A stretch of DNA of 64,000 nt from Candidatus Methylomirabilota bacterium (GCA_046726415.1 JBKPAK010000020.1:14040-78039), one strand, 5' to 3'. Counted from the first letter of the stretch, positions 12,287-51,144 are shown. Notes: generated from the sequence alone by a model not told the origin. Numbers and translations are program-made.

Positions 12287-12419
12287 ATGAGGTCACGGGC
12301 CTCACATTTCGCCGTCGCTCGCGCGGCGCCGCGTTCGGTTTGCTGTCAGGCGTCTCCCTGGCTGGTTTACCATGGCTTCCCAACAACCTGGAGCGCGCTC
12401 CACGCATGGGAGATTCGGC

Positions 12420-13553: not shown

Positions 13554-13557
13554 ACCG

Positions 13558-15755: not shown

Positions 15756-15895
15756 CGGTCTCCCGGGGTCATGAGCAGCCGTGGCCATCGTAGTCCAGCG
15801 CCTGCGCGGCCTCAACCCACTCCCCTAGAATCGACGTGGAAGCGAAATTCGGGTCAGCGTCCGGTCCAGAGACGCGACCGCGGGGAGGGACGGCG

Positions 15896-30951: not shown

Positions 30952-31013
30952 CGGTCAGGGCCGGTGAAGCGAACGGTGAGCCGGGTGGCCGCCGGTGTGA
31001 TCGAGGCCGCGGC

Positions 31014-32018
31014 TCACCGCTGGCGCACCGAGCAGGTCGGGGCCAGAGCGCGGTCGAGACACTGCCGAAGCCGGGCCCCCGTGACCGCGGCGTACGGCTC
31101 CTGGAGCATGATATCGGCTCGGCAGCTAGGTGACGCGGGGTGCACTTCGAGACCCGACCCGGCGAACGCCTCCCACTCCAGAGACCGGTCGTCGGCCAGG
31201 CTTACCTCGTCGGTGCTCGGCAGGAAGAGCGTGATCCGACCGGGGTAGACCCGCGGCAGGTACCGCCTGGCGGCCGCGGCGGTCGCCTGTTCCACGCGCA
31301 GCCGGTACACGCGCTCGGCACTCCCGCGCTCGATGCTTCGCCGCGCGACGAGATCTCCCACCTTGGTCCGCACGTATCCGGCGCGCTCGCCGCGCCCCAA
31401 GGTCATCAGGATCCGCCCGTGCCTCCTCAGCCGCTCCAACGCCAGTCGGACTTCTACGCGGCTCCGATGGCGCCATCCCAGTGCCGTCGGAGAGGGCGTG
31501 GCGAATAGGGCGAGCAAGGCAACCTCGTGCGCCTGAGCTCGGAGCTGCTGAGCCATCTCGAAAGCCACCACCCCGCCCAGGCAATAGCCGCCGAGCGCGT
31601 AGGGCCCTTCCGGCTGGAGGCCTCGCATCTCTGCCACAAAGTAGGCGGCAAGATCCTCGATCCGCTCGAGCGGAAGGCGCGTCCCGTCGAGCCCCGGTGG
31701 CCGCAAGGCGTAGAACGGCTGGTCGGTTCCCAGGTGACTGGCCAGGCGGACGTAGCAGAAGACGTCTCCATTGTGCCCGGGCACGGCGACCAGGCGGGGG
31801 CGGGAGCCGGCAGCCTGCATGGGAACCACCGCCGAGCTCTTCGACCATTCCTCAGCCGCCTGGAGAAACGCCACGATTTCGGGCTTGCGCAGGCCGAGCT
31901 CCTCGCGAAGCGCGAGGGTGAGGCCCCCCTGGGGTGCGTTACAGCGCAGGCGATCCCCTTCCACCCAGACCCGGATATCCCGGCTGCGCAGTTGGGAGAG
32001 GAACTCGGCCGTTGTCAC
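31014..32018 (-). CDS. Stand-alone thioesterase-like protein with an N-terminal TubC-type docking domain
   Basis: EFLSQLRSRDIRVWVEGDRLRCNAPQG..K.EIVAFL docking motif; QPEGPYALGGYCLGG. GTG overlaps the NRPS stop. Confidence 0.88.
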   Translation of the reverse strand: MTTAEFLSQLRSRDIRVWVEGDRLRCNAPQGGLTLALREELGLRKPEIVAFLQAAEEWSKSSAVVPMQAAGSRPRLVAVPGHNGDVFCYVRLASHLGTDQPFYALRPPGLDGTRLPLERIEDLAAYFVAEMRGLQPEGPYALGGYCLGGVVAFEMAQQLRAQAHEVALLALFATPSPTALGWRHRSRVEVRLALERLRRHGRILMTLGRGERAGYVRTKVGDLVARRSIERGSAERVYRLRVEQATAAAARRYLPRVYPGRITLFLPSTDEVSLADDRSLEWEAFAGSGLEVHPASPSCRADIMLQEPYAAVTGARLRQCLDRALAPTCSVRQR

Positions 32019-35000
32019 AGCTCGATCTCGTCTCGAGCCCCGATTGGTGCGGAGTGCTCTTTTCCCGAGGCCCACGTGAGGGTGTCCACGACCTCGGCCA
32101 GCCCGGCTACCGTGGGGGCGATGAAGAGGCTGCGCAGCGGCAGCTCCACGGCGAATTGCTCGCGAGCGCGCGCGATCAGGCGGGCCGCCAGGAGTGAATG
32201 GCCGCCCAGGTCGAAGAAGTTATCGTGGATATCGACGCGATCCTGCTGCAGGACGTCGGCCCAGATGGCAGCCAGTGCCTTCTCGGTGTCGGAGCGAGGT
32301 GAAGCAGTCGGCCGATCGGCTCTCCCAGACTCGTCCCGGGCGGGAAGAGCCCGACGGTCGACCTTGCCGTTGGGGGCTAACGGCAGCGCGTCCAGGACGA
32401 CGAAGGCCGAAGGGATCATGTACTCGGGAAGCCGTCGGCGGAGGTGAACCCGAAGCTCGGTCTCGCTGAGGTCTGCTCCGGCTACGGCGGAGGTCACGTA
32501 GGCCAACAGCCGCTTGAGCTCAGGCGCGTCCTCCCGCAGCACGACCACACTCTCGCGAACGCCGGGACACCGGGCCAGGGCGTTCTCGACCTCGCCGAGC
32601 TCGATGCGGAAACCCCGGAGCTTGACCTGATGGTCGAGGCGGCCCAGGTAGTCGAGGGTGCCATCGGCCCGGTAGCGGGCGAGGTCACCGGTCTTGTAGA
32701 GGCGGGCGTTTGGATCGGCGCTGAACGGATGTCGGATGAACTTCTGGGCGGTGAGATCGGGGAGGTGCAGATAGCCGTGGGCCAGGCCGCATCCTCCGAT
32801 GTGCAGCTCGCCGGGAACGCCGACAGGTACGGGCTGCAAGTGGGGGTCGAGGAGGTAGATCTCGGTATTGGCGATGGGACGGCCGATGGGGACGGGATCG
32901 TCGGTGCCCGAGACGCGATGCAAGGTAGACCAGATGGTGGTCTCCGTGGGGCCGTAGAGATTCCAGACACTGACGCCGCGGCGGCAGAGCGCGGTGGCCA
33001 GGTCGGTCGAGAGGGCCTCGCCGCCGCAGAGGATCGCGAGGCCCGGCGTACCGGGCCAGCTAGCTTCCAGCATCAGACGCCACGTGGCCGGAGTGGCCTG
33101 CATGATCGTGACCTGGTGACGCGCGAGCAGGCCGACCAGCTGAGCTCCGTCGCTGGTGGTGTCGCGGCGGGCGATGATGACGCGAGCGCCCACGAGGAGC
33201 GGCAGGAACAGTTCCAATCCGGCGATGTCGAAGGACAGGGTGGTTACGGCCAGGAGGCAGTCGTGGGCGGTGACACCCGGCGTCCGGAGCATGCTGGCGA
33301 GGAAGTTGACCAAGGCCCGGTGCGGGACCTGGACACCCTTGGGCTGGCCGCTGGAGCCTGAGGTGTAGATGACGTAGGCAACGTCGTCAGCCGTAACCCC
33401 GCTGACGGGAGGGGCCTCGGGCTCGAGACTGATCAGATCCCAGTCGGCGTCCAGATAGACCGTTTGGGCGTCGTGGTTGTCCAGCGTGTCCTCGAGCGCG
33501 CGCTGGGTGACAAGGATAGGGGCCTGGGCGTCGGCGAGCATGAAGGCCAAGCGCTCGGGGGGGTAGGTGGGATCCAGGGGCACATACGCTCCGCCCGCCT
33601 TGAGGATGCCCAGCACGCCGACGAGCATGTCGAGGGAACGCTCGACGCACAGGCCGACGCGGCAGTTGGGGCCGACGCCGCGACCGCGCAGGTGATGAGA
33701 GAGCTGGTTGGCGCGGCGGTGGAGCTCGCGGTAGGTGAGAGCGGCATCCTCGAAGACAGCGGCGATCGCGTCGGGAGAGCACTCGGCCTGAGCCTCGAGG
33801 AGATCGGGCAGGGTGGCCTGCTGGGGATGGGCCGCTCCGGTGGCGTTCCAGTCGACGAGGAGCTGCCGGCGCTCGTCGTCAGTGAGAAGCGGTAAGGCAG
33901 ACAGGCGCTCGGTGGGACTGGCCACGATGCCTTCGAGCAGGACTCGGAAGTGGCCGGCGAGACGCGCGATGGTGGGGGGGTCGAACAGATCGGTGTTGTA
34001 CTGCAGCGCGCCGCGCAGGCCCTCGCTGCTCTCGCGCAGGAACAGGGTCAGGTCGAACTCGGAGGCACCCGTTTCGGTGTCGATCGGCCTCGCGGTCAGA
34101 CCCGGGAGGGCGAGGGCGATGGGAGCGGTGTTCTCCAGCACGAACATCACCTGGGCGAGCGGGGCGTGGCCGAGGCTCCGCTCGGGACGCAAGTCCTCCA
34201 CGAGTTTCTCGAAGGGAAGATCCTGGTGGTCGTACGCGTCGAGGGTGACGCGGCGGACGCGGCCGAGCAGATCGCGGAAGGAGGGGTCGTCAGCTGCGGA
34301 GGTCCGGAGGGCCAGCGTATTGACGAAGACGCCTATGAGTGGCTCAAGGTCGGGTCGGGACCGCCCGGCAATCGGCGACGCCACGACGATGTCGCTCTGC
34401 CCGCTGAGGCGATGCACCAGGGTCTGGACGGCGGCGAGGAGGCACATAAAGAGGGTGACGTCCTCGCGGCGGCTCAGGGCAAGCAAGTCCGCGGTCAGCG
34501 CCGCGGGCAGGGCGAAGTAATGGTGGGCGCCGCGATAGCTCTGCACCGCGGGCCGGGGCCGATCCGTAGGGAGCTCGAGAAGCGGAGGAACGCCGGCGAG
34601 CTGCTGGATCCAGTAGGCCCGCTGGGCGGTCACCGCCGGTCCTTCGAGCATCTGGCGCTGCCAGAGGGCGAAGTCGGCGTACTGGATGGGCAGGGCCGGC
34701 AGAGGAGACGGCCGGCCGTGGGTGAAGGCTTCGTAGAGGGCAGCGAGTTCCTGGAAGAGCACGCCGAGAGACCAGCCGTCGGAGGCGATGTGATGGCTGA
34801 CCAGGAGGAGGACGCACTCGTCGGCCGCCAGCCGAACCACGGCCGCCCGCAGCAGCAGATCGCGGGTGAGGTCGAAGGGGCGGCCAGCTTCCTGTCTGAG
34901 TAGCCGCCCTAGTTCGGTCTCGCGGGGAGCCGCAGGCCAGGCGCGCAAGTCGACGACGGTTACGTCGGCTGGCCGAGACCCGGCGATGATTTGGACGGGG

Positions 35001-38000
35001 CTGCCGCGCTGAAAGGCGAAGGTCGTGCGCAGGGCCTCATGGCGCGCGACGAGCAAGTCCAGACTCTGCTGCAGGGCCGGGAGATCGAGGGCGCCCCCGA
35101 GGCGAACAGCGGAGGCGATGTTGTGGAGCGGGCTGTCGGGGGTGAGCTGGTTGAGGAACCACAGGCGCTGCTGAGCGAAGGAGAGCGGGCAGGGACCCGT
35201 ATCGAGACGGCGCGGAATTGCCCCATTCTCTGCGCGCGGGGCGAGGTCGCTCGGCCGGCCGAAGGCAGCGCGGCCTGCGTCGATCAGCGTGGCCAGCTGC
35301 GCCACGCTGGGCGACTCGAACAGGGCGCGGAGGGACACGTCGGCGCCGAAGGAATCCCGCAGTCGAGCCACCATCCGCATGCCGAGCAAGGAGTGGCCGC
35401 CCAGGTCGAAGAAGTTGTCATGGACGCCGACCTCGGGGAGGTCGAGCAGATCGCACCAGATCTGAGCGATGAATCGTTCGGTCGCCGTGGTTGGCGGTGC
35501 GAGCCGCGGCACTGGAGCCCCGTCCGCAATGGCATCGGGCAACGCAGAGCGATCGACTTTCCCGGAGGGCGTGAGCGGCAAGGTTGGGAGGGGCACGAAG
35601 ACGGAGGGGATCATATAGTGCGGCAGCTTCTGCCCAAGGTAGGCGCGGAGGTCGGCCGCGGAGGGTTCAGCCCCGCCGCGGCCGACCACGTAGGCCACCA
35701 GGCGCTGGTCACCGGAGTGGCTCTCGCGGACGACCACGACTGCGTGGCCCACGAGCGGGTGCTGCCCCAGAACCGTTTCGATTTCCCCGAGCTCGATGCG
35801 GAAGCCCCGAATCTTGACCTGGTGGTCGAGACGGCCGAGGAAGTCGAGCTGTCCGTCGCTGCGGTAGCGGACGAGGTCTCCCGTCCGATAGAGGCGCGCG
35901 CCCGGGCGGCCGGCGAACGGATCCGCCACGAATCGCTCGGCGCTCAGGTCCGGTCGACCTCGGTAGCCGCGCGCCACCCCCGCGCCGCCGATGTACAGTT
36001 CGCCGGGCACGCCCACGGGCCGCGGTTGACCTCGCGGGTCGAGGACGTACACGCGGGTGTTGGCGAGCGGCCGTCCGATGGAAACGGCGCCGTCCCCGGG
36101 CGTCACTCGATGCGCGGTGGACCAGATCGTCGTCTCCGTTGGCCCGTACAGATTCCAGACCTCGCTGGCGCGGGAGAGGAGCTCCGCGGCCAAGCCGCGC
36201 GCGAGCGCTTCGCCCCCACACAGCGCCTTGAACGGCCGGCGGCCTTCCCAGCCGGCCTCGAGCAGGAGCCGCCACGTGGCAGGCGTCGCCTGCATCACCG
36301 TCGTTCCCGATCGCGTGATCCACTGCGCGAGCTGCCGGCCGTCCGCCGCCGCGTCCTGGCTGACCACCTCGACCTTGGCGCCGACGACGAGCGGCAGGAT
36401 CAGCTCCAGCACCGCGATGTCGAATGAGATGGTGGTGACGGACAGCATCTGGTCCGATGGCGTCAGAGTCAGGATCTCCTGCATCGCGCCGAGAAAGTTC
36501 GCCACGGCTCGGTGAGGGATCTCCACGCCCTTGGGGCGCCCCGTCGAGCCCGAGGTGTAGATCGCGTAGGCCAGCGACTCCGGGTCGATCGGTCCCGAGG
36601 GGGGCCCGGCGCTGCGGTCAGAGAGTTCCGCACAGTCCGAATCCACATAGACGACGGTGGTTGTCCCGGCCGGGACGCGATCGCGGAGCGAGGTCCGCGT
36701 CAGAAGAACGACCGCTTGGGAGTCCTCTAACATGAAGCCGAGCCGCTCGGTGGGGAACGTCGGATCGAGGGGCACATACGCCCCCCCCGCCTTGAGAACG
36801 GCCAGGAGCGCCACGACGAGATCTGCGGACCGCTCGAGACAGAGGCCGACCAGGACGTCCGGCCCGACGCCGAGTTCACGAAGGCGATGCGCGAGGCGGT
36901 TGGCGCGGTGATTGAGCTGCTGGTACGTCACAGTTTCCCCGCCGCACACCACGGCCACGGCCTCCGGAGTCCGGCCCGCCTGGGCGTCGAAGAGAAGCGG
37001 CACGGTCGTGGCCGGATAGTCCCGCTCAGTGGCGTTCCACCGCCCTAAGATCTGACCGCGATCCTCCGCTGACAGTACGCTGACGAACCCGATGTTCTGC
37101 TGCGGATCGGCGGCCAGCCCCTCCAGAACCGCCTGGTAGGAGCGAAGCCACTGCCGGATGGTATCGGACTCGAAGAGATCGATGTTGTAGTACCAATCCA
37201 CCACCAGGTTCCCCGCGGACTGCGCGATGTTCACGTCCACGTCGAAGTTGATCGCGCGCCGAGGCGGGATGACGAGCTCGGCCTCGAGACCGGCGAACTT
37301 CGGCGCCACCGCGGGGGGGTCGAGATTGAAGATCACCGATGTGAGCGGCAGTCGGCTCCGATCGCGAGGGAGGCGGAGCTTCTCGAGCAGGCTGCCATAG
37401 GTGTAGCGCCGGTGATCGTGGACGTCGAAAACGATGGTCTTCAGCGAACTCAAATAGTCCGCGAATGGCATGTCAGGCTCGAGGCGGCTCCGCACCGGCA
37501 AGAGGCTTGCGCAGTGTCCCACCACGTCGTTGGCGCCTTCTGCCGTCTGCCCTGCCACCACGATGCCGACGACGATGTCCTCGTGCCCGGTCAGCCGATG
37601 GAGCACCACCTTCAGTCCGGCCAGGAGCGCGGTGAAGAGCGTGCTGCCGCGCGACGCGCCCAGGTGTCGCAGCGCACGGCCGAGCGCCGCCGGCAACGTG
37701 AGGCGTTCTCGGCCCGCCCGGTACGTCTTCACAGCGGGTCGCGGCCGGTCGGCCGGCAGCTCGAGGACGGGCACAGGGGCCGCGAACTGCTCGAGCCAGT
37801 ACTGCTCGGTCGCTGTCCGGGCCGCGGTGCCCTCGAGCTCGCGCTCCTCGCGAGCATAATCGGCGAACTGCCTGGCCGGACCCAACGGGGCGGTCCGACC
37901 CTGGCGGACGGCTGAATAGAGAGTCCCGATCTCCTCGAGCAAGATTCCGAGCGACCATCCGTCCACCGCGATGTGGTGCACGGATACGAGGAGGACGTGG

Positions 38001-38458
38001 TGCTCCTCGCCGAGCCTCGCGATGCGGGCGCGCAGCACGGGGCCCCGACCGAGGTCGAATGGGTCCCACACGTCCTGCCGCGCGAGTTCGTCGAGCAGCC
38101 CCTCTCGTTGCGCGGGCGGTCGCGCCGACAGGTCGTCCAGGGGCACATCCACCGGCATGAACGCCTCCAGGATGCACTCCTTTCCATCCGCGCTGAATCG
38201 GCTGCGCAGGGCGTCATGTCGCGCAACGAGCTGCTGGATCGCCTCCCGGAGCGCGCTCACCTGACACGGCCCGCGGAGGTGTACGGCCACCGCGTCGGCG
38301 AACGCCCGCGATCCGTCCTCGCCCATCTGGGTGGCCAGCCAGATCTCCCGCTGCGCCTCGGTCATCGGCAAGGTGGTCGGGGCGGATTGCTCCTGTCTGA
38401 ACGGATCGAAGTCGACCGGCGTCAACGTGAGGGAAGAGAGACGCGGCTCGGTGGTCAT
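32015..38458 (-). CDS. NRPS, C-A(Gly)-T-C-A(Gly)-T
   Basis: HHIAVDG and HHIASDG; two YTSGS, YGPTETTIW and GKVDR; two LGGHS. Pocket residues read by eye as DILQLGLIWK in both A domains. Confidence 0.93.
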   Translation of the reverse strand: MTTEPRLSSLTLTPVDFDPFRQEQSAPTTLPMTEAQREIWLATQMGEDGSRAFADAVAVHLRGPCQVSALREAIQQLVARHDALRSRFSADGKECILEAFMPVDVPLDDLSARPPAQREGLLDELARQDVWDPFDLGRGPVLRARIARLGEEHHVLLVSVHHIAVDGWSLGILLEEIGTLYSAVRQGRTAPLGPARQFADYAREERELEGTAARTATEQYWLEQFAAPVPVLELPADRPRPAVKTYRAGRERLTLPAALGRALRHLGASRGSTLFTALLAGLKVVLHRLTGHEDIVVGIVVAGQTAEGANDVVGHCASLLPVRSRLEPDMPFADYLSSLKTIVFDVHDHRRYTYGSLLEKLRLPRDRSRLPLTSVIFNLDPPAVAPKFAGLEAELVIPPRRAINFDVDVNIAQSAGNLVVDWYYNIDLFESDTIRQWLRSYQAVLEGLAADPQQNIGFVSVLSAEDRGQILGRWNATERDYPATTVPLLFDAQAGRTPEAVAVVCGGETVTYQQLNHRANRLAHRLRELGVGPDVLVGLCLERSADLVVALLAVLKAGGAYVPLDPTFPTERLGFMLEDSQAVVLLTRTSLRDRVPAGTTTVVYVDSDCAELSDRSAGPPSGPIDPESLAYAIYTSGSTGRPKGVEIPHRAVANFLGAMQEILTLTPSDQMLSVTTISFDIAVLELILPLVVGAKVEVVSQDAAADGRQLAQWITRSGTTVMQATPATWRLLLEAGWEGRRPFKALCGGEALARGLAAELLSRASEVWNLYGPTETTIWSTAHRVTPGDGAVSIGRPLANTRVYVLDPRGQPRPVGVPGELYIGGAGVARGYRGRPDLSAERFVADPFAGRPGARLYRTGDLVRYRSDGQLDFLGRLDHQVKIRGFRIELGEIETVLGQHPLVGHAVVVVRESHSGDQRLVAYVVGRGGAEPSAADLRAYLGQKLPHYMIPSVFVPLPTLPLTPSGKVDRSALPDAIADGAPVPRLAPPTTATERFIAQIWCDLLDLPEVGVHDNFFDLGGHSLLGMRMVARLRDSFGADVSLRALFESPSVAQLATLIDAGRAAFGRPSDLAPRAENGAIPRRLDTGPCPLSFAQQRLWFLNQLTPDSPLHNIASAVRLGGALDLPALQQSLDLLVARHEALRTTFAFQRGSPVQIIAGSRPADVTVVDLRAWPAAPRETELGRLLRQEAGRPFDLTRDLLLRAAVVRLAADECVLLLVSHHIASDGWSLGVLFQELAALYEAFTHGRPSPLPALPIQYADFALWQRQMLEGPAVTAQRAYWIQQLAGVPPLLELPTDRPRPAVQSYRGAHHYFALPAALTADLLALSRREDVTLFMCLLAAVQTLVHRLSGQSDIVVASPIAGRSRPDLEPLIGVFVNTLALRTSAADDPSFRDLLGRVRRVTLDAYDHQDLPFEKLVEDLRPERSLGHAPLAQVMFVLENTAPIALALPGLTARPIDTETGASEFDLTLFLRESSEGLRGALQYNTDLFDPPTIARLAGHFRVLLEGIVASPTERLSALPLLTDDERRQLLVDWNATGAAHPQQATLPDLLEAQAECSPDAIAAVFEDAALTYRELHRRANQLSHHLRGRGVGPNCRVGLCVERSLDMLVGVLGILKAGGAYVPLDPTYPPERLAFMLADAQAPILVTQRALEDTLDNHDAQTVYLDADWDLISLEPEAPPVSGVTADDVAYVIYTSGSSGQPKGVQVPHRALVNFLASMLRTPGVTAHDCLLAVTTLSFDIAGLELFLPLLVGARVIIARRDTTSDGAQLVGLLARHQVTIMQATPATWRLMLEASWPGTPGLAILCGGEALSTDLATALCRRGVSVWNLYGPTETTIWSTLHRVSGTDDPVPIGRPIANTEIYLLDPHLQPVPVGVPGELHIGGCGLAHGYLHLPDLTAQKFIRHPFSADPNARLYKTGDLARYRADGTLDYLGRLDHQVKLRGFRIELGEVENALARCPGVRESVVVLREDAPELKRLLAYVTSAVAGADLSETELRVHLRRRLPEYMIPSAFVVLDALPLAPNGKVDRRALPARDESGRADRPTASPRSDTEKALAAIWADVLQQDRVDIHDNFFDLGGHSLLAARLIARAREQFAVELPLRSLFIAPTVAGLAEVVDTLTWASGKEHSAPIGARDEIEL

Positions 38459-41400: not shown

Positions 41401-43377
41401 CCTCGCCCGCTCGGCGACCACCCGCAGGGCATCCTCACGCGAGAGGACGCCGGCCAGGCACGCCGCCACGTATTCGCCGAGGCTGTGGCCAATCATCGCC
41501 TGGGGCTTCACCCCCCAGCGCATCCAGAGGTCGGCCAGCGCATACTCGATGGCGAACAGGGCGGGCTGGGTGACGCGCGTTTCCTCGAGGAGGGCCGCGG
41601 CCGCCGCGGCGCCAGTGGCATCCGGATAGAGCACCGTTCGTAGGTCCAGCTCCAGCTCCGGCTGCAGAGTCTCCGCGCATTCGTCGACGGCGGTCCGAAA
41701 GGCCGCCTCGCCCTGGTAGAGTCCCCGCGCCATGTTCACCCGCTGCGCGCCCTGCCCGGGGAACAGGAAGACCACGGGCGCCGCGCGGGCATCGCACTGG
41801 GTGCTCACCAGGTGCTCGGCCTCCGGCCGGCGTAGCGAGGTGATGGCCTCGGCACCATCACGGCACACCAGCATCCGCCGATGGGCGAATCGCCGGCGGC
41901 CGGCCTGGAGCGTGAAGGCCACATCGGCGAGGTCGAGTCCCGGCGACGTCTCCAGGCACCGGGCGAGGCTGGCCGTGGCCTGTTCGAGGGCAGAGGCCGT
42001 CCTTGCCGAGATCACCAGCAACTGCTCGCGCCGGGCCGGCGCCGGACCCGGCGGTGTTGGCGCCTCTTCCAAGACCACGTGAGCGTTGGTGCCGCCCACG
42101 CCGAAAGAGCTCACCCCGGCTCGGCGCGGCGTCCCGCCCGGCGGCCAGTCAACCAGCCTCGTGGCAACGTAGAACGGGCTGTTCTCCAATTCGAGCTTCG
42201 GATTCGGCGCTGTGAAGTGCAGACTGGGGGGAATCTTTCGATGCCGCAGGGCCATCGCGGCCTTGATCAGGCCGACGATCCCCGCCGCCGCGTCCAAATG
42301 CCCGATGTTCGTCTTCACCGACCCGACGGCGCAGAAGCGAGTCGCGGAAGTACCGGCCCGGAAGGCCTGGGTGAGCGCGGCGATCTCTACCGGGTCCCCA
42401 AGGGGGGTCGCGGTGCCGTGCGCCTCGACCAGGGAGATGGTTTCCGGCTCCACGCCAGCGAGAGACTGGGCCAGAGCGATGCACTCGGCCTGGCCATCCA
42501 CGCTGGGCGCCGTGAAGCTCACCTTGGTGGCGCCATCGTTGTTGAGCGCCGCCCCCTTGATTACCGCGTAGACGTTGTCGCCGTCGGCCAGTGCGTCGGC
42601 CAGGCGCTTGAGCACGACGATGCCGACCCCATTGCTGAATACGGTGCCCGCGGCCTCGACGTCGAAGGCCCGGCAGTGGCCGTCAGGGGACGTGATGGCG
42701 CCTTCCTGATAGAGATATCCGCGTTGCTGGGGGAAGGTGATGGACACGCCGCCGGCTAGCGCCGTGTCGCACTGATAGTCGATCAGGGCCTGCACGGCCT
42801 GACAGACAGCCACCAGCGAGGTCGAGCAGGCGGTGTAGACGCTCACGCAGGGCCCGCGCAGATCCAGCTTGTAGGCGACCCGGGTGGCCAGGTAGTCCTT
42901 TTCATTGCCCATCATGACAAGCAGACCGCCCGCCCGCTGGATCGCGACCGGATTGGGATACAAGTTCTCCAGGAAGTAGGTGTTGTTGCTCATCCCAGCC
43001 CAGACGCCGATCGCACCCCGGTACATCCTCGGGTCATAGCCCGCATCCTCGAGCGCGGTCCAAGCCGTTTCCAGGAACACCCGCTGCTGAGGATCCATGA
43101 CGGCCGCCTCGGTGGGGTTGATGCCGAAAAACGCGGCATCGAACAGCTCGGCGCCGGGCAGGACACCCCGCGCCGGCACGTAATTCGGGTCCTTCCTCAT
43201 ACCGGGTGATTCGGCCCGACAGGGCTCTAGCTCGTCGGTCGCGAAGCGAGAAATCGACTCGACTCCGCCCTCAATGTTCCGCCAGAATTCCCCCACGTCC
43301 CGGGCACCGGGGAAGCGTCCGGCCATCCCGATGATGGCCACGCCGTCCATGGGATCTCCGTGATCCGAGTGCGCCAT
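38455..43377 (-). CDS. Type I PKS, KS-AT-ACP-aminotransferase (class III, PLP)
   Basis: KS TACSTS/HGTAT/IGHLD; AT GHSLGE and HAFH; ACP GLDSL; AMT DEVVTGFR, TYGKVIGGG. Confidence 0.93.
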   Translation of the reverse strand: MAHSDHGDPMDGVAIIGMAGRFPGARDVGEFWRNIEGGVESISRFATDELEPCRAESPGMRKDPNYVPARGVLPGAELFDAAFFGINPTEAAVMDPQQRVFLETAWTALEDAGYDPRMYRGAIGVWAGMSNNTYFLENLYPNPVAIQRAGGLLVMMGNEKDYLATRVAYKLDLRGPCVSVYTACSTSLVAVCQAVQALIDYQCDTALAGGVSITFPQQRGYLYQEGAITSPDGHCRAFDVEAAGTVFSNGVGIVVLKRLADALADGDNVYAVIKGAALNNDGATKVSFTAPSVDGQAECIALAQSLAGVEPETISLVEAHGTATPLGDPVEIAALTQAFRAGTSATRFCAVGSVKTNIGHLDAAAGIVGLIKAAMALRHRKIPPSLHFTAPNPKLELENSPFYVATRLVDWPPGGTPRRAGVSSFGVGGTNAHVVLEEAPTPPGPAPARREQLLVISARTASALEQATASLARCLETSPGLDLADVAFTLQAGRRRFAHRRMLVCRDGAEAITSLRRPEAEHLVSTQCDARAAPVVFLFPGQGAQRVNMARGLYQGEAAFRTAVDECAETLQPELELDLRTVLYPDATGAAAAAALLEETRVTQPALFAIEYALADLWMRWGVKPQAMIGHSLGEYVAACLAGVLSREDALRVVAERARLMQSMPGGVMLAVRLPAVEVEPLLSGTLSVAALNGPAVTVVAGNAEAVQALEAELGARGVAFRRLPTSHAFHSSMMDSVLKPFEAVMRGVRLKPPQVPWVSGVTGQWITAAEAMDAAYWARQLRQPVRFADGVALLVREGSQLLLEVGPGRSLTALARQHTDRSAGQTVIASLPLDENAGPDIESILDALGRLWIAGADIDWAAVHDGQRRRRLPLPTYPFERQRFWIDPPTSAERAPEASPETVTAVGMAGIPTAAADDSRSEESMADTPVEVTPTPGRHAILLGRVRALFAELSGIDAAALDHDTPFVEAGLDSLSLTQASAAIQKAFGVKISFRQLLEDLASPGALADWLDRTLPPNPSPAPSVRVPVSSTTESSEVVPRGSAVRPESQEDGSRFEVPRREKPDAAVGSVEWLVAQQLELMSRQLDLLRSGAPAASAGGGARATPERPPDGVPVSPAYQAALADSASQESRAFGPYRPIDKGTGGGLTPSQQRSLEAFITRYTARTQGSKRLAEQHRRHLADPRSVAGFRLPWKEAVYPIVTVRSAGSKLWDVDGNEYVDLTNGFGMVLFGHAPPFVTAAVEAQLRLGFEIGPQSPLAGEVARRLCAFTGMDRAAFCNTGSEAVMAAIRLARTVTGRDRIAMFAGAYHGVFDEVLVRPTLSDGVLRSRPIAPGIPAGMADNVIVLEYGQSASLDLLRAQAGELAAVLVEPVQSRRPDLQPWEFLRELRELTASSGTALICDEVVTGFRAHPGGVQAMLGIQGDLATYGKVIGGGLPIGIVTGRREFMDALDGGMWQYGDLTFPEIGVTFFAGTFVRHPLALAAARACLIHLEEEGPELQRRLNERTTRLVEALRAVVARAQAPIRLTHFSSFFCIGLPPDYPFAPVVFAWLRAKGLHVWEGRPAFLSTAHSDEDIDRVVQAFAETVAEMQEVGLLPSTGPATPPLPGARRGRDPSGREAWFIPDPDRPGKYLEVGERR

Positions 43378-43378
43378 G

Positions 43379-46300
43379 CTACGGGTTCCGGCCGATCCTT
43401 CGCGGTCGGGATTGCGCGTCCCGCTGGCGCCGAGCCCGATCTCGAACGTGGCTCAGGCAAGATGCCTCGTTCGGCTGGTGGCTGAGGTAGCCGGCCAGCG
43501 CACTGACGGTGGGGTATTGGAGCAGCGCCACGATGGGAAGGTTCAGGCCCAGCCGGGCCTGGAGCCGGGTGTGGGTCTCGACGAGCAGAATAGAGTGCCC
43601 GCCGAGATCGAAAAAGTTATCGTCGAGCCCGACCCGCTCTACTTCGAACAGCTCCTGCCAGATCGCGGCGATGGCCTGCTCGAGCCGCGTGCGCGGGGCG
43701 AGATACGCCGCGCCCTCCTTCGAGCGGTGATCGAGCCCCGCGACCGCCAGCTGCCCGTCTGGAGGTGGAGGCAGCACCGCCAGGATGTCGGCGATCGTCC
43801 GTCGCGTGGCGGTAGTCATGGCCTCGAGGACCGCGGCCAAAGCGGCGAGCGAGCGGCGGATCGCCGCGCCGTCGAACTGGTTGCGGCGGTAGATCATCTT
43901 CAGCCGGAGCTCAGGAGCCGGCGTCACCACCAGAGTCAACGGATAGTTGGTCGCCTCCGGCATCGAGACCGGAGCGATCTCGACGGTTGGTCCCAGCCGG
44001 CGCGCCTCCTGGCTGACGGCGTAGTTCTGGAAGACGAGCAGACTGTCGAACAGGCGAAGCCGCCACGGAATGCCCGTCCAGGCCTGAATCTCGAGCGGGG
44101 AGACGTACTGGTGGAGCACGGCATCGGCCTGCTTGTCCTGTGCCTCGGCGAGCCAGACCGGTACAGACATCTCCGGCCTGACCTGGAGCCGGATGGGGAG
44201 ATTGCTCACGAAGGTCCCCACCATCGATTCGATACCGGCCACCTTAGGTGGTCGCCCGGAGAACGTGACCCCGAAGACCACGTCGGCCTGGCCACTGCGA
44301 TGGCTCAGGAGTAAGCCCCATGCCCCTTGGACGAGCATGCTCAAGGTGAGGTGATAGCTCCGCGCAAACGAACGGAGGGCCGCCCCAGTCCGCTCTGACA
44401 GCCTCACCTCTTCCTCGGCGTGCGACTGCCCTGCGCCCTCTGAGCGTCCCGCCGGCGCAGGCGGCAAGCCGAGCGGGGTGGGCGCGGTGAAGCCCGCGAG
44501 CCAGCGCCGCCAGAAGGCCTCGGTCTCCGTACTGTTCCGACCTTCCAGCCAGCCGATGTAGTCGCGGTACGCGTGGGGGGGCGCGAGTCTGGCATCTCGG
44601 CCCGCGCGGAGGGCTTCGTAGCACTCCGACAGCTCGGAGAAGATTAGGGGCCACGACCAGCCGTCGACGTGGAGGTGATGGGTGGTCCAGAGAAGGTGGA
44701 ACGTTTCGTCGGCCAACCGGAGGAGCGTCACGCGCGTGAGTGGAGCCCGCGACAGGTCGAAGCCCTGAGCGGCGTCCGACTCCACGAGTTCGGCCAGTCG
44801 CGTGCTCTGGTCGGTGGCGGAGAGAGCACTCCAGTCGTGCTCGCTCCACGGCAGCGCCACGCGGCGGACGACGACCTGCAACTCCCGCTGGCCGTCGGAG
44901 ACGAAGGCGGTGCGGAGAATCGAGTGCCGATTGACGACCAGTTCCCACGCGCGCCGCAGCGCCGGCGCGTCCACCGAGCCGTGCAGGCGGTACTGCCACT
45001 GCTCCAGCCCGGAGCCGGCGGCCTCCATCGAGTGAAACAGGCGCTGCATGGGAGACAACGCGTATATGTCTTCCACCTCCTCGAGGTCGCAGGGAAGCCG
45101 GTCGAGAAGAGCCAGGTCGAACGCCGCCGGCGCGACGTGGGCCGGCCGTGCGTCAGTTGCCCCTCGCGTCTCACAGGCCAGGAGCACTTCGCGCACAGCC
45201 TCGACGAAGCTCTGGGCCAATCGCTCCACCGTCTGCCGGCGGTGGATGTTTTCGCTGTACGTCCACCGCATCTGGAGCCGTCCGTGAATGACCAGGGCCA
45301 AGAGGTCGATCAGGTGCCGCCGCGGAGCTCGTGGGCTGTGCCAGGGGCCGGCGGGTTCCGCGGCGAAGCGGAAGAGGCCGGAGCCGGCCAGAACCTGGTC
45401 GAACTGACCGAGGTAGTTGAACAGCACCGCGGGCTGGGGATGGTCGCCGAGGAGGGTGGCGGTGGTCGGATCGCCGAGGTAGCGAAGGACGCCGTAGCCA
45501 ATGCCTCGGCCCGGGACCTGCCGCAGTTGCTCCTTCACCGCGTGGAGCACGTCGGCGAGGGGACCACGCGGGGGCTCGAGCCGCAGCGGGAAAATGCTGG
45601 TGAACCAACCCACGGTCCGCGAGAGATCCACATCGTCGAAGATCGCCTCCCGACCGTGGCCCTCGACATCCACGCAGAGGGACCCGCCCTTCGTCCATCC
45701 GGTGAGGCACCGCGCCAGCGCCGCCAACAAGACGTCGTCGACCTGCGCGCGGAATACTTGGGGCACCCGCTGCAGTAGCGCACGTGTCTCCTCGATCCCG
45801 ATGGACCACGTCACGGTTCGAGCGGACATCTCGGTGTTGGCACCGCCCTCGAAGTCGACAGGGAGGCGGGCGGAGTCCACGTTCGCGGTGGCCAGCCAAT
45901 GACTGAGCTGATTCCGGCAGGCTGGCCACTGCGCGTACTCAATGAGCCGCTGCGCCCAACGCCGATACGACGTCGTCCGGGCGGGCAGCCGCACCGTGTC
46001 GCCCCCATGCAGTGCTCGGTAGAGCGTGTCCACATCCCCCAAGAGGATTCGCCAGGACACCCCATCGATCACCAAATGATGGGCGATGACAAGGAGCCGG
46101 CCCGGGCGCCGGGGGCCGAGTCCGAAGTGGGCTATTCGCAGGAGTGGGCCATCGGCGATGTCGAGAGTGCGCTGGAGCTCAGTCGCCTTCGCTTCGATGG
46201 CGGCTGGCAATTCGGCGTCTGGCCGTCCAGAGAGGTCTATCTCCGCGACAGAGATGGTCCCGCCATCGTTGCTATAGCGCTGCTCCCAGCCGTGGGCGCC

Positions 46301-49300
46301 GCGCCGGAACCGCAGCCGGAATGAGTCGTGGTGATCGACGACGTGCTGGCTTGCCGCTTCCAGAGCCTGTACATCCACGTCGGTCGGCACCTCGAACAGG
46401 AAGGCTTGGTTCCAGTGATCAGGCTCCGGTAGTTCCTGCTCGAAGAACCAGCGCTGGATCGGAGTGAGGGGAACGCACCCCTCCGCTCGATGGCCGTCGT
46501 CCTGCGGCGTCGCGACTGCCGTCACCGCAGCCAGCTCGGCGATCGTCGAGTGCTGGAACAGCTCCCGAGGCGTGAACGATAGACCAGCCTGACGGGCGCG
46601 CGCGATGATCTGGATCGCGAGAATCGAGTCCCCGCCCAGCTCGAAGAAGCTGTCGTGGACGCCAACCCGCTCGAGCCCGAGCACGGCGGCCCAGATGCCG
46701 CTCAGGGTCTCCTCGATGGCCGTCCGGGGAGCCACGTAGCCCCCACGCACGTCGGGACGCGTCTGATCGAGTGCGGGCAACGCCTTTCGGTCCACCTTCC
46801 CGTGGCCGGTTAGCGGGAGCCCGTCGAGCCGCACGAACGCGGCGGGCACCATGTAGTCGGGAAGCTTGGCCCGCAGGAAGCCGCGTATCTCGTCGGCCAT
46901 GAGCGGCGCGTCGCGGTCAGCGACGTAGTACGCCACCAGCCTCTTGTCGCCCGGGATGTCCTCACGGACGATGACCACCGACTCCCGCACCGCCGAGTGC
47001 TGGGCCAGCGCCGATTCGATCTCCCCCAACTCGATCCGGAAGCCCCGAATCTTCACTTGGTCGTCGATTCGGCCGAGGTACTCGAGATCCCCATTGGGCA
47101 GCCGCCGTGCCAAGTCCCCCGAACGGTAGAGCCGCGCGCCCGGAGCGGCAGTGAACGGGTCGGCGATGAATCGCTCGGCGGTGAGCTCGGGCCGGTTCAG
47201 GTAGCCACGCCCCACGCCGGCACCACCTATATAGATCTCCCCGGCCACTCCGATCGGGACGGGACGGAGCCAGCGATCCAGAACATAGACCTGGAGGTCT
47301 GGGATCGAACGGCCGATGACGCTGCCGCTGCCGGAAAGGACGTCGTTGAGCGCGATCGGACGGTAGGTGACATGCACGGTGGTCTCGGTAATGCCGTACA
47401 TGTTGATGAGCCGAGGCGGCCGATCTCCAAACCGCTCGAACCAGGGCCGCAGCGCTTGCAGGTCCAGCGCCTCGCCGCCGAAGATAACGTACCGAAGGGC
47501 GAGCCCACGCGACTCGCCCTCCAGTATCACCTGCATCAGCTGTCGAAATGCCGACGGCGTCTGGTTCAACACCGTCACCTGCTCCCGGTACAACAGCTCG
47601 GCGAACGCCTCCGGCGAGCGACTCACCCAGTAGGGCACCAGCACGAGCCGGCCTCCGTACAAGAGCGCGCCCCACAGCTCCCACACGGAAAAGTCGAACG
47701 CGTACGAGTGGAACAGGGTCCATGCGTCCGCGGGGCCGAAGCGGAACCACGGGTCGGTGGCGTCCATGAGCCGGACGACGTTCCGATGGGTGATGAGGAC
47801 GCCCTTGGGACGCCCGGTGGACCCTGACGTGTAGATGACGTAGGCCAGGCTGTCGGCCGTAGCGCCGCCGGAGACATTGTCTTCGGCTGCGCCGCCGTCA
47901 GCTGCCTCTTCGCCCGAATCGCCCTCGAGCAGGACCATCCGAGCTCGATGCGGGGGCAGTGCGGAGGCCAGTTCGCCCTGGGTCAGCAGAACGGCGACTT
48001 CGGAATCCTCCAGCATGAAGGCGAGGCGATCCTTGGGGTACCGGGGATCGAGTGGGAGATAGGCGCCCCCCGCCTTCAGGATGGCGATGATCGCCATGAC
48101 CATGTCCACGGATCGCTCGACGAAGAGCCCGACCAAAACCTCCGGCCCCACGGAGAGCTCCCGCAGGCGGCGAGCCAGCCGGTTTGCGCCGCGGTTCAGC
48201 TGTCGGTAGGTCAGCGCCCGCCCATCATGGATCACCGCCACCGCGTCCGGCGTTCGCGCAACCTGCCGCTCGAATCGCTGGTGAATGCACAAGCCGTTGG
48301 CGGGGCCGATGGGGAGTGGGTTCGGGCTAGGCACCAGCTCGGCGCGCTCTGTCGCGGTGAGATACGGCACCGCCCGCAGCGGTTGGTCTGCGGCAGTGAT
48401 CATCCCCTCGAGAAGGAGGCCGACATGATCCAGCATCCGCGCCGCGGTGTCGTCGTCGAATCGCCGGCGGTCGTACTCCAGGCGAAGGAGCAGCTCGGCG
48501 TCCGCATAGGCAATGAAGGTGAGCGGGTAGTTCGTCTGCCCGAGGTAGCGAAAGCGCCGGCCGGTCCACTCTCCTCCCTGCGCGCGCAACGCGGTGTTCA
48601 GGAGGTAGCGCTCGTAGACCACGAGACTCTCGAAGAGCGGCGTACCGCGCGGCACGTCGCTCCAGTCCTGGATCTTGACCAGCGGTGTGTGCTCGTGCGC
48701 GCGCAGGGCCACCCCTTGGCGGCGAAGCTCTCGCAGCCAGGGCACGAGCGGCGCGTCGGATTTCACGCGAACCCGAACGGGCAGGGTATTGATGAACAGC
48801 CCCACCATGTCGTCGGCACCCTCGAGGGACGAGCGCCGACAAGCCCGGGTGGCCCCAAAAACGATGTCGTCCTCGCCGCTGTAGATGTGAAGCAAGAGCG
48901 CCCAGGCGCCTTGCAGCAGGGTGTTGACCGTGAGCTCATGCTTCTCGGCGAAGTCCCGGAGCCCGGCGGTGACGTCGGCGGCCACTCGTGCCTCGTGGGC
49001 GCCGTGAGTTCCCTGCGCGGCAGGTGCCGTGCGCGGGTTTTGCCCCACTCGCAGCGGCGTCGGTGTCGTGAAGCCTTTGAGCAGGCGCCGCCAGTACTCT
49101 TCCGCGCGGGCGGGATCCTGTCCATGCAGCCACTCGATGTAGTCGCCGTACGGCCGCGGCAGGGGAAGGTCGAGCTCCCGCCCGTCGCGGATCGCCTCGT
49201 AATAGGCGAAGACCTCCCGGAGCACGAGCGGGAAGGAGCGCCCGTCGAGCACGGCGTGGTGGAACGTCCACAACAACCGGGCCACTCGGCCGGGTAGCCA

Positions 49301-49699
49301 GACCAGGGTCAGGCGCATCAGCGGCGCCTGGCTCACGTCGAAGCCTCGCCGGCGATCGGCCTCGAGCAGAGTTGACCACCGCGCCTGGCAATCCCCAGCG
49401 TGGATCGTGGACCAGTCCAGCTCGGCCACGGGGATTTCCACCGAGCGGTAGACCTCCTGCACCGACTGCGCGACCCCGTCGACGCGGAACCGCGTCCGCA
49501 AAATCGGGTGTCGGGCGACGACTCGCTGCCAGGCGGTGAAGAGGGCCGGCGCGTTCAGCACCTCGTCCAGATCGCAGATGATCTGCTCGATGTCGACGCC
49601 GGACGCATCGGACGAAAGACTGTGGAAGAGCATCCCGTGCTGAAGGGGCGAGAGCTCGTAGGAGGCTTCAACGGCTCGGTGGAGGCCCAACGGTGTCAT
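43379..49699 (-). CDS. NRPS, C-A(Thr)-T-E-C-T
   Basis: C HHAVLDG; A pocket DFWNIGMVHK; T LGGDSI; E HHLVIDGVSW, TVGWFT, FNYLGQ; C HHLHVDG; T LGGHS. ATG 49699 overlaps the PPTase stop. Confidence 0.93.
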   Translation of the reverse strand: MTPLGLHRAVEASYELSPLQHGMLFHSLSSDASGVDIEQIICDLDEVLNAPALFTAWQRVVARHPILRTRFRVDGVAQSVQEVYRSVEIPVAELDWSTIHAGDCQARWSTLLEADRRRGFDVSQAPLMRLTLVWLPGRVARLLWTFHHAVLDGRSFPLVLREVFAYYEAIRDGRELDLPLPRPYGDYIEWLHGQDPARAEEYWRRLLKGFTTPTPLRVGQNPRTAPAAQGTHGAHEARVAADVTAGLRDFAEKHELTVNTLLQGAWALLLHIYSGEDDIVFGATRACRRSSLEGADDMVGLFINTLPVRVRVKSDAPLVPWLRELRRQGVALRAHEHTPLVKIQDWSDVPRGTPLFESLVVYERYLLNTALRAQGGEWTGRRFRYLGQTNYPLTFIAYADAELLLRLEYDRRRFDDDTAARMLDHVGLLLEGMITAADQPLRAVPYLTATERAELVPSPNPLPIGPANGLCIHQRFERQVARTPDAVAVIHDGRALTYRQLNRGANRLARRLRELSVGPEVLVGLFVERSVDMVMAIIAILKAGGAYLPLDPRYPKDRLAFMLEDSEVAVLLTQGELASALPPHRARMVLLEGDSGEEAADGGAAEDNVSGGATADSLAYVIYTSGSTGRPKGVLITHRNVVRLMDATDPWFRFGPADAWTLFHSYAFDFSVWELWGALLYGGRLVLVPYWVSRSPEAFAELLYREQVTVLNQTPSAFRQLMQVILEGESRGLALRYVIFGGEALDLQALRPWFERFGDRPPRLINMYGITETTVHVTYRPIALNDVLSGSGSVIGRSIPDLQVYVLDRWLRPVPIGVAGEIYIGGAGVGRGYLNRPELTAERFIADPFTAAPGARLYRSGDLARRLPNGDLEYLGRIDDQVKIRGFRIELGEIESALAQHSAVRESVVIVREDIPGDKRLVAYYVADRDAPLMADEIRGFLRAKLPDYMVPAAFVRLDGLPLTGHGKVDRKALPALDQTRPDVRGGYVAPRTAIEETLSGIWAAVLGLERVGVHDSFFELGGDSILAIQIIARARQAGLSFTPRELFQHSTIAELAAVTAVATPQDDGHRAEGCVPLTPIQRWFFEQELPEPDHWNQAFLFEVPTDVDVQALEAASQHVVDHHDSFRLRFRRGAHGWEQRYSNDGGTISVAEIDLSGRPDAELPAAIEAKATELQRTLDIADGPLLRIAHFGLGPRRPGRLLVIAHHLVIDGVSWRILLGDVDTLYRALHGGDTVRLPARTTSYRRWAQRLIEYAQWPACRNQLSHWLATANVDSARLPVDFEGGANTEMSARTVTWSIGIEETRALLQRVPQVFRAQVDDVLLAALARCLTGWTKGGSLCVDVEGHGREAIFDDVDLSRTVGWFTSIFPLRLEPPRGPLADVLHAVKEQLRQVPGRGIGYGVLRYLGDPTTATLLGDHPQPAVLFNYLGQFDQVLAGSGLFRFAAEPAGPWHSPRAPRRHLIDLLALVIHGRLQMRWTYSENIHRRQTVERLAQSFVEAVREVLLACETRGATDARPAHVAPAAFDLALLDRLPCDLEEVEDIYALSPMQRLFHSMEAAGSGLEQWQYRLHGSVDAPALRRAWELVVNRHSILRTAFVSDGQRELQVVVRRVALPWSEHDWSALSATDQSTRLAELVESDAAQGFDLSRAPLTRVTLLRLADETFHLLWTTHHLHVDGWSWPLIFSELSECYEALRAGRDARLAPPHAYRDYIGWLEGRNSTETEAFWRRWLAGFTAPTPLGLPPAPAGRSEGAGQSHAEEEVRLSERTGAALRSFARSYHLTLSMLVQGAWGLLLSHRSGQADVVFGVTFSGRPPKVAGIESMVGTFVSNLPIRLQVRPEMSVPVWLAEAQDKQADAVLHQYVSPLEIQAWTGIPWRLRLFDSLLVFQNYAVSQEARRLGPTVEIAPVSMPEATNYPLTLVVTPAPELRLKMIYRRNQFDGAAIRRSLAALAAVLEAMTTATRRTIADILAVLPPPPDGQLAVAGLDHRSKEGAAYLAPRTRLEQAIAAIWQELFEVERVGLDDNFFDLGGHSILLVETHTRLQARLGLNLPIVALLQYPTVSALAGYLSHQPNEASCLSHVRDRARRQRDAQSRPRRIGRNP

Positions 49700-50526
49700 G
49701 GGACACATGAGTCAACCCCAGGACCTTCGTGGAGCCGCCTCTTGTGGCCCACCCATGCCCCGCACACCAGACGTTCGATAGCGCCCTCGACGGCAATCGC
49801 CGCGACATGGCTCCGATCGATCGGCACCTCATGAAGGCTGAAGTGCTCGCTCTCGCCCGGACTGTTCTCGATGCGCAGCAATCGAGCCGGCTCCCCGGGC
49901 GCAAAGGCCACGTCAAAGTTCGCGAGAGGGTAGGAGAGCCCCTGCCCGAGGGCCTTGACGATTGCCTCCTTCCGCGTCCAGCAGCGAAAGAACGCGGAGA
50001 GCTGCTCGTCAGGTCGCAGCGACCGGAGCACTTGACGCTCCTGGGCCGAGAAGACGCTGGCGGCTAGCTCGTCGAGGTCCTCTACCGCTCGGATCAGCTC
50101 GATATCGACGCCGATCTCTCGGTCGCGCGTCAGTGCGCACAGGGCAAGCCCATGTGAATGGGACAGGTTGAAGCGGAGCCCGTCCCCGCCCGCATCCCCG
50201 GATAGGGAGGGCTTGCCATGAGCGCTGTACTCGAACTCGAGCCGATCCGGGTCGACGCCACAGTAGCCGGCCAAGACCTCCCGCAGGAAGCCGCGGCCGA
50301 CCACAAACCGCTTCCGGTCCCGCTCGAAGTGAAACCTCGCCGCCCGTGCCGCCTCATCCGCGGACAGCGCGCTGGCGAGCCGCCGAACCTCGGGCGCGAG
50401 CTGATCCAGATCCGCCACCCACACATGGATTTCGCCTCCGGGCAGCGGGACGCTGGCTGCCGGAGTCGGCAAGCATAGGGATCGAGGACCCGCTTGGACG
50501 TTGGACTCGAAGTGCACCACCGTCAC
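49696..50526 (-). CDS. 4'-phosphopantetheinyl transferase, Sfp-type (first gene of the NRPS-PKS operon)
   Basis: HGKP, FNLSHS, IGVDIE, WTRKEAIVKALG. Confidence 0.92.
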   Translation of the reverse strand: MTVVHFESNVQAGPRSLCLPTPAASVPLPGGEIHVWVADLDQLAPEVRRLASALSADEAARAARFHFERDRKRFVVGRGFLREVLAGYCGVDPDRLEFEYSAHGKPSLSGDAGGDGLRFNLSHSHGLALCALTRDREIGVDIELIRAVEDLDELAASVFSAQERQVLRSLRPDEQLSAFFRCWTRKEAIVKALGQGLSYPLANFDVAFAPGEPARLLRIENSPGESEHFSLHEVPIDRSHVAAIAVEGAIERLVCGAWVGHKRRLHEGPGVDSCVP

Positions 50527-51144
50527 GCCGGGCGATGGCTTGTTTCGGCGCCTCGGGCGAGTGGCCCGGGCGGCCCCTCGTGCAGCCGGGCCTCGGCCCC
50601 GCGCATATCCGAGGCGTCTTGCTCCATGGGCGGCTTCTTAGCAATTTCGCGGCCGAATCTGGCCCGGCGGTGTCGGAGGGATTTCGACACTGCCTGCCCG
50701 CAGCGCCATGCCAACGTTGCGTCCTACCCCGGGCTGGATCGGCGCTTGTTACCTCAGTTTCTTGGCCCTCCCGACGGGGGAGGAGCCGGTAATGGCATCG
50801 ACCTGAAGACAATGGGCCGGTGCGCACGTTGTAGATATGACAATGACGAGATTTCCGGCGGCGGCGCCGGACTTTCCGGGCCGGAACCCGCGCTGCCGAC
50901 GGGACGTCACATCGGGACCGATTCGCGCTTGCAGGGAGCCTATTGCGCGCCTACGCCGTGAAGCGCGCGATGGGCAGGGCGCGCTCGCTCGTGGCGCCGA
51001 CCGGCGGTCGAGCACGCTCTCGCGGGCCCGCCGCTTGCTGGATTTGGAAGTACATGCGGATAAAGGCAAATCGGAAAGCAGCTTCCGAAGGGGAGAAGGC
51101 GGCGACGCCGCCCTCTCTCTGGCTGAGAACAGGAGGAACTTGAG

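Follow-up and report, generated by a model that had tools for sequence, protein, structure and literature searches.

What peptide is built by the hybrid nonribosomal peptide synthetase-polyketide synthase (NRPS-PKS) operon at positions 31014-50526 (minus strand) of a 64,000-nt stretch of DNA from a Candidatus Methylomirabilota bacterium (GCA_046726415.1, JBKPAK010000020.1:14040-78039; the whole stretch is called the window below), and which of its residues does the PKS extend? The operon is a real, intact five-gene hybrid NRPS-PKS assembly line of an uncultured soil bacterium. Its genes stand in tandem, all with high third-position GC, and each junction, as read from the DNA, is an overlap of 4-13 nt or a 1-nt gap. 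A preliminary description of the locus had named five co-oriented, coupled genes with the domain orders phosphopantetheinyl transferase (PPTase); C-A-T-E-C-T; KS-AT-ACP-AMT; C-A-T-C-A-T; and a docked thioesterase (TE), where C, A, T and E denote condensation, adenylation, thiolation and epimerisation domains and KS, AT, ACP and AMT denote ketosynthase, acyltransferase, acyl carrier protein and aminotransferase. Pfam matches, motifs and the DNA junctions bear this out, and every catalytic motif sought in the operon proteins was present, with HHxxxDG kept in all four C domains and the E domain and with the carrier serines in place. The product then proposed, X-(D-Thr-derived, extended unit)-Gly-Gly, has to be revised, because the A-less C-T module was ignored and the D configuration was placed on the extended unit. 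Taken whole, the best explanation is instead a colinear line leading to a possibly N-acylated D-allo-Thr-[Thr-derived 3,4-diamino-5-hydroxyhexanoyl]-Gly-Gly, which we judge somewhat likelier to be right than wrong.

The integrity of the locus is also seen in soil-metagenome contigs from four public runs (four studies; one of the runs may be the source sample), which match 30600-50599 at at least 95% identity. Single soil contigs bridge the left boundary (30600-31730, in two runs) as well as the NRPS2/TE (31936-34540), PKS/NRPS2 (36120-40089) and NRPS1/PKS (41461-47045) junctions.

The first gene (49696-50526, minus strand) encodes an Sfp/HetI-type 4'-phosphopantetheinyl transferase (Pfam ACPS 2.2e-19, AASDHPPT_N 3.5e-12) with the GxDxE and WxxKEA motifs; it scored 223.7 bits against the NCBIfam HetI model, under the cut-off of 370, and its start codon is uncertain (GTG 50526, 50520 or 50517). 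A 13-nt overlap, or an ATGA overlap with the second ATG as start, leads into NRPS1 (43379-49708, minus strand; 2109 aa), in which Pfam finds three Condensation-family stretches, one AMP-binding domain and two PP-binding domains. Together with the motifs and the pocket code these give C1-A(Thr)-T1-E-C3-T2 (all on the minus strand): an N-terminal C1 with the motif HHAVLDGRS and no module upstream (48353-49672), the sole A domain of the protein (46796-48274), T1 (GGDS) with the epimerisation domain (45119-46708), and an A-less module composed of C3 (HHLHVDGWSW) and T2 (GGHS; 43475-45076), where the gap between the C3 and T2 domain matches is 91 nt. The middle Condensation-family stretch has the E-type motifs HHLVIDGVSW, EGHGRE and FNYLG. 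Pocket codes were read from alignments of all A domains with the Thr A domain of the window as reference; both codes of the preliminary description, DFWNIGMVHK in NRPS1 and DILQLGLIWK in NRPS2, were recovered, and we take them to specify Thr and Gly, respectively. Among solved structures, C1 is closest to the McyB C domain (E 1.8e-105), PvdL C (558-1001), SrfA-C and TycB and only weakly similar to TycC and LgrA (about E 1e-16 to 1e-20), and C3 likewise matches McyB, PvdL, SrfA-C and TycB far better than TycC or LgrA. These top relatives presumably take D-aminoacyl or fatty-acyl donors, and D-donor use would fit the position of C3 after the E domain; for C1, the donor may be a candidate acyl-CoA or acyl-ACP.

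After the TAG of NRPS1 and one further base, an ATG opens the PKS gene (38455-43377, minus strand; 1640 aa; KS-AT-ACP-AMT). The KS has its Cys in TACSTS and His residues in EAHGT and NIGH, the AT has GHSLGE and HAFH, and the ACP has GLDS. HAFH, reported earlier for this AT and found again here, is taken to mean malonyl-CoA specificity. The class III aminotransferase (Pfam Aminotran_3, residues 1200-1564) follows the PP-binding domain (946-1012) and carries the Lys for pyridoxal phosphate (PLP) in YGKVIGGG. The earlier assignment to the ACP-adjacent, MycA kind was upheld by alignment to the MycA aminotransferase (PDB 6kfm/6kfu), which gave E 1e-142 over 453 residues with the PLP-Lys motif kept. 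The features of a hybrid NRPS-PKS with an in-line aminotransferase, namely a fused class III PLP domain with its Lys, a condensing KS and a downstream C domain (C4), were thus all found. MycA is described as moving an amine from Gln onto an ACP-bound beta-ketothioester (PMC3870968).

An ATGA overlap joins the PKS gene to NRPS2. The long open reading frame (ORF) opens at 39010, with its upstream part overlapping the PKS gene, but the true start is ATG 38458 (32015-38458, minus strand; 2147 aa; C4-A(Gly)-T-C5-A(Gly)-T from Pfam, motifs and codes). Both A domains have the code DILQLGLIWK, the best solved relatives of C4 are Txo1/Txo2 and TycC, and the C-terminal tail is acidic, ending in DEIEL. 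A recent duplication of the two Gly modules is ruled out, since the repeat segments are 64-67% identical. The last ORF (31014-32075) matches TubC_N (2.2e-18) and Thioesterase (1.4e-26), with AB3403 (4zxh), AerJ and TubC docking domains as PDB matches. As a start at GTG 32018, in a GTGA overlap with NRPS2, sets the docking domain at the very N-terminus, the free-standing TE gene more likely spans 31014-32018 (minus strand; 334 aa). The docking domain is basic, and we propose that the enzyme would dock on the acidic tail of NRPS2 through this TubC-type domain. The docked TE of the preliminary description is therefore present, though its nucleophile had been overlooked: the motif GYCLGG indicates Cys, not Ser. 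Neither an exporter nor a regulator nor a resistance gene lies within the operon, as had been noted before.

In the course that we propose, the PPTase would activate the five carrier domains, and the single Thr A domain would charge T1 and, by our reading, A-less T2. C1 might N-acylate Thr-S-T1, possibly from an acyl-CoA or acyl-ACP donor, and the E domain would convert the T1-bound residue to D-allo-Thr, which C3 would couple to the residue waiting on T2. The KS would then condense the dipeptidyl chain with malonyl-ACP, and the AMT would aminate the new beta-ketone in a MycA-like manner to give a 4-N-acylated 3,4-diamino-5-hydroxyhexanoyl unit, to which C4 and C5 would append two Gly. Finally, the Cys-thioesterase, docked on the NRPS2 tail, would free the chain as a linear acid or in cyclised form. 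The product would probably be a small, very polar peptide with an unusual two-amine acid; in linear form and without the acyl group it would, by hand calculation, be C14H27N5O7 ([M+H]+ 378.198). The extended, beta-aminated unit is placed on T2, and not assigned to the D residue, because an A-less C-T module stands between T1 and the KS. This is where our formula departs from the preliminary one: the E domain acts on T1 while T2 feeds the KS, so that the separate residue X would include the D residue, passed by C3 to the T2 cargo. The stereochemistry changes as well, as alpha-epimerisation of L-Thr gives D-allo-Thr and not D-Thr.

The relatives of the operon were used to place this arrangement in context. 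A search with the C-terminal half of the PKS returned 6004 proteins at E <=0.001 among 8000 scored, and the 119 non-self PKS matches listed were 53-68% identical, with source names that include Gemmatimonadales, Burkholderiales, Angelobacter, Dormibacteria-like, Rhodanobacteraceae and Bradyrhizobiaceae-like bins. We then compared 80 genome loci selected by generic KS patterns (8 with an AMT) and 80 AMT-centred metagenome loci, with domains labelled by tblastn using the window's own domains. A KS-AT-ACP-AMT core followed by a C domain was found in 88 AMT-carrying loci from many phyla. The loader was readable in 62: a simple A-T before the KS in 48, C-A-T-E-C-T in 9, C1-A-T in 2, FkbH-T in 1 and other arrangements in 2; an N-terminal FkbH-T was also seen on two relatives (P0220 and a protein of L002). 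The AMT is followed by a C4-type C domain, and the commonest next A codes are Gly-type, DILQLG(M/L/V)(I/V)WK. With the C3-T2 region as query, NRPS1 relatives had the exact C1-A-T1-E-C3-T2 layout in 83 of the 120 best matches, and DFWNIGMVHK was exact in 66 of 84 proteins of 2030-2150 aa. All nine extended loaders have a Thr-type code, and in nine related loci C3-T2 lies immediately before the KS.

By its sequence, the window cluster is thus a member of a widespread orphan family and not singular: it has the T domain feeding a KS, the C4-type C domain and the Gly-coded A domain of the amino-acid-primed KS-AT-ACP-AMT/C-A(Gly)-T family. This corrects the rarity implied earlier, to which both the NRPS1 layout and the 88 core loci speak, although the statement that the architecture could not be recognised holds in so far as no characterised cluster was found in the literature searched. 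Most family members are A-T-KS-AT-ACP-AMT plus C-A(Gly)-T(+C-T) and TE, and the window shares the core and the Gly module, along with the Cys-TE and the PPTase gene that are frequent in the family; among 43 TE matches the nucleophile was Cys in 21 and Ser in 16 (6 unresolved), and Cys was found in all five extended-loader lines labelled for it. It differs from the majority by the minority loader C1-A(Thr)-T1-E-C3-T2, by two complete Gly modules and by the free docked TE. In L090 and L092 the order PPTase-NRPS1-PKS-C-A-T-docked TE is repeated, with one post-AMT module in place of two.

Three sets of genes beside these relatives are recorded for completeness. Surface-polysaccharide genes flank 4 of the 8 relatives with scanned flanks (L001, L002, L090 and L101), while the window flanks hold catabolic enzymes and uptake transporters and no surface-polysaccharide genes beside the operon. 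An ORF of some 346 aa, conserved but without a match in Pfam or NCBIfam, occurs at L005:2664-3704 and after the TE in L093, L156, L159, L160 and L161. Cupin_8/JmjC-like genes, which hint at hydroxylation of the product, stand beside L005, L002, L106 and L165, including 3 of the 9 extended-loader loci. Neither the 346-aa ORF nor a Cupin_8/JmjC-like gene was found in window positions 28001-53000, the region searched.

The family also bears on the central step, the charging of T2. In 31 A-less C-T junctions of the family the gaps were 76-463 nt, all too short for an A domain. Relatives finish with C4-A(Gly)-T-C5-T, whereas the window line, C4-A(Gly)-T-C5-A(Gly)-T, repeats one and the same code, and the only NRPS-sized A domains in the 98%-complete host genome are those of the operon and of one module at a contig edge. 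This habit of A-less C-T modules, the duplicate Gly code and the lack of a free NRPS-type A domain in the genome argue that one A domain serves two T domains, and we infer that T2, like T1, would be loaded by the Thr A domain of NRPS1. That the line runs colinearly is argued by the gene order, by a single protein (P0178) that fuses C1-A-T-E-C3-T2 to KS-AT-ACP-AMT, by the adjacency of T2 and KS, and by the position of the TE.

Several observations weigh against this reading. The argument that the Thr A domain would charge T2 is one of architecture, and as no relative was found whose second module, ahead of an AMT line, contains an A domain, the family gives no direct hint at the T2 cargo. A further argument in favour, the likeness of T2 to loader T domains, is a weak one. 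T2 was the best match for 27 of the 45 loader T domains detected in A-T-KS lines; this likeness could come from a common KS partner and not from a common A domain. In a quick T-domain tree, all 10 T2-type domains shared a group with 21 loader T domains, from which the 9 T1 domains were all separate, but the alignment has 76 columns, the search was a quick one only, and the key fork (SH-aLRT 90) is drawn unresolved. A gene for the putative C1 donor is absent from the operon, and the nearest solved relatives of C1 would fit either a D-aminoacyl or a fatty-acyl donor. Of RNA data sets, none was listed as containing the PKS gene, a result that is silent on expression.

How, then, could the line work otherwise? 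In-trans loading of A-less modules is known from SyrB1/SyrC and from AmbB to AmbE, and an A domain from another locus might similarly charge T2 with some residue other than that on T1, in which case the extended, aminated unit would not be Thr-derived. The same genome does hold a contig-edge C-A-T module (L087), and the assembly lacks the part upstream of it. This A domain, the only other one of NRPS type in the genome, belongs however to its own C-A-T module, and the A-less C3-T2 recurs in those 83 of 120 best matches and in nine loci from different phyla with no conserved free A gene adjoining, which makes such loading unlikely. The version of the preliminary description, in which C3-T2 adds no residue and the D-configured Thr is itself malonate-extended and aminated, draws on the fact that T2 has no A domain. 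Yet the HHxxxDG of C3 and the GGHS of T2 are intact and both are conserved across the family; we know of no precedent for a condensation domain that merely shuttles a chain between carriers and consider an inert module very unlikely.

MycA is the closest characterised relative of the AMT, and a C domain opens every NRPS gene of the operon, as would suit a non-colinear, iturin-like line in which a fatty-acyl-started PKS makes a beta-amino fatty acid, Gly-Gly and then NRPS1 follow, and the ring is closed through the beta-amine. The operon, however, encodes neither an acyl ligase nor a loading ACP, P0178 joins NRPS1 and the PKS in one protein, an A-T didomain lies immediately before the KS in the 48 simple-loader loci, and the TE follows NRPS2, whose acidic tail suits its docking domain. 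We hold this line to be a highly improbable one. Scarcely any weight falls on membership of an already characterised pathway: the full-text literature searched, in which most subscription journals are missing, gave no match, no homologue bore a product name in the sources, and the sole bacterial C-A-T-E-C-T literature match, MgpD, is another pathway.

Like the window PKS, MycA and ItuA (mycosubtilin and iturin; AMT structures 6kfm, 6kfr and 6kfu) have a class III AMT between KS/ACP and C. In MycA, an acyl ligase and an ACP supply a fatty acid as primer; the window KS would be fed by a peptidyl-T, has its own AT, and is followed by only two Gly modules after the AMT. As to iturin-type features, no AMP-binding domain for priming was found in the PKS, the three NRPS A domains being the only ones in the operon, and the two Gly modules after the AMT in the window fall short of an iturin-type seven-residue peptide. 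McyE/NdaF-type modules (microcystin and nodularin) run KS-AT-ACP-AMT then C-A-T. The window shares this module order, and the solved domain nearest to both C1 and C3 is the C domain of McyB, but the window lacks the upstream Adda PKS modules, the methyltransferases and the large macrocycle, and its starter would be an amino acid or dipeptide. For the TE, the best solved match is AB3403, a C-A-T-TE protein of Acinetobacter baumannii (4zxh; E 3.5e-18), whose nucleophile is likewise Cys (GGWCFGG, compared with GGYCLGG in the window). The AB3403 TE is fused to its own module, in a pathway without PKS or AMT.

The bacterial literature match to the NRPS1 layout is MgpD from the megapolipeptin cluster of Paraburkholderia megapolitana, described as C-A(Val)-T-E-C-T-TE with a proposed role in terminal amide formation (PMC11411415). 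MgpD and NRPS1 have C-A-T-E-C-T in common, with an A-less C-T after the E domain, whereas in MgpD the activated residue is Val, a TE closes the protein and no PKS-AMT is fed. The same cluster includes a cupin-family hydroxylase (PMC11411415), a parallel to the Cupin_8 genes beside three of the nine extended-loader relatives. A fatty-acid-primed lipopeptide with an AMT (PMC12819058) differs from the window system. No matching chemistry or domain order with a known product was found in the full-text literature, a corpus that mostly does not reach into subscription journals.

The host genome (7.6 Mb in 352 contigs, 98% complete) carries the window within a 78-kb contig. Its RpoB is 82-95% identical to metagenomic proteins; of the 120 matches listed, two bear organism names, 'Candidatus Rokuibacteriota' and 'Candidatus Tectomicrobia', and we take the host to be a Rokubacteria-like metagenome-assembled genome. 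The cluster was found in none of 40 relatives, among them an unpublished genome (G011); the only strong PKS match there, in G017, is a PKS of the order KS-AT-KR on a 76% GC contig and not an orthologue. The left flank matches both same-genus genomes (G001 and G002) at 83-88% identity up to 30951, and on the right the match resumes at 52070 in G002, on a different contig. In G001 the matches to 30951 and 55385 stand about 7.1 kb apart, with other ORFs in between; at the cluster site there (L171, contig C5:37500-46800) the ORFs are three, of 828, 1089 and 444 aa. Flank homology thus puts the operon inside a variable, strain-specific segment of about 21 kb (30952-52069), which also holds a BON-domain gene and is absent here from both same-genus genomes. 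A segment of this kind fits horizontal acquisition.

A 618-bp spacer separates the operon from the BON-domain gene (51145-52029, plus strand), which is transcribed divergently. At the two operon ends, scans for promoters and terminators gave nothing above shuffled sequences except a terminator-like site at 51088-51071 (minus strand). Among 34 flanking ORFs scanned, no other NRPS/PKS-related gene was found bar a second Sfp-type PPTase (11537-12292), which adjoins a P450 gene (9766-10983) and a DAO-family FAD oxidoreductase gene (12291-13553); in the same neighbourhood (9766-15824), 15 kb from the operon, are a 482-aa ORF without family and an alpha/beta hydrolase gene, and no carrier protein was seen. 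To the left of the operon, a mandelate racemase/enolase-family gene is split into an N-terminal domain ORF (29508-30329) and a C-terminal domain ORF (30423-31133), where G001 and G002 have a single ORF of about 410 aa. A base at 30666 is missing from the contigs of three of the four soil runs, which points to a frameshift in the present assembly or strain.

The contig-edge NRPS piece (L087; host genome G000, contig C13:1-14000) consists of a partial C domain (HHIVCDQWS, with Q replacing G), an A domain (A4 region FVDSIWE) and a T domain. Its identity to the last NRPS2 module is 47%, and its tail, VEIEL, is of a similar kind. Downstream lie genes for an ABC exporter, a sigma-54 activator, a Wzz/GNVR-like protein, a GFO/IDH oxidoreductase and a carbamoyltransferase; as no TE follows the module, it might share the docked TE encoded in the window.

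What does the locus add? The kind of system is known already, and what is added is a variant with an extended Thr loader and two Gly modules. The gain from the window alone is modest, being one further member, in an uncultured Rokubacteria-like genome, whose neighbours give no functional clue. A wider reading, which we offer tentatively and taken whole would sooner expect to fail than to hold, is that the family builds beta,gamma-diamino (vicinal diamine) acids from an aminoacyl or peptidyl thioester by malonyl extension and in-line transamination, with one A domain routinely charging two carriers, and that the window would yield an N-capped D-allo-Thr/diamino-hydroxyhexanoyl/Gly-Gly chain released by a Cys-thioesterase. 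To our knowledge, this route to vicinal diamines is unshown for any natural product. If the proposal for the window is true, a gene-cluster family that is very common in soil but unstudied could be tied to a definite chemistry, the assembly-line synthesis of vicinal diamino acids. The recurring A-less C-T modules would then show clearly that a single adenylation domain can supply two carriers, a point of importance for predicting products from genomes. Should the wider reading hold, the window product would be a small polar metabolite of a new class, perhaps a metal binder or cell-surface decoration, common to many soil phyla and moved between them.

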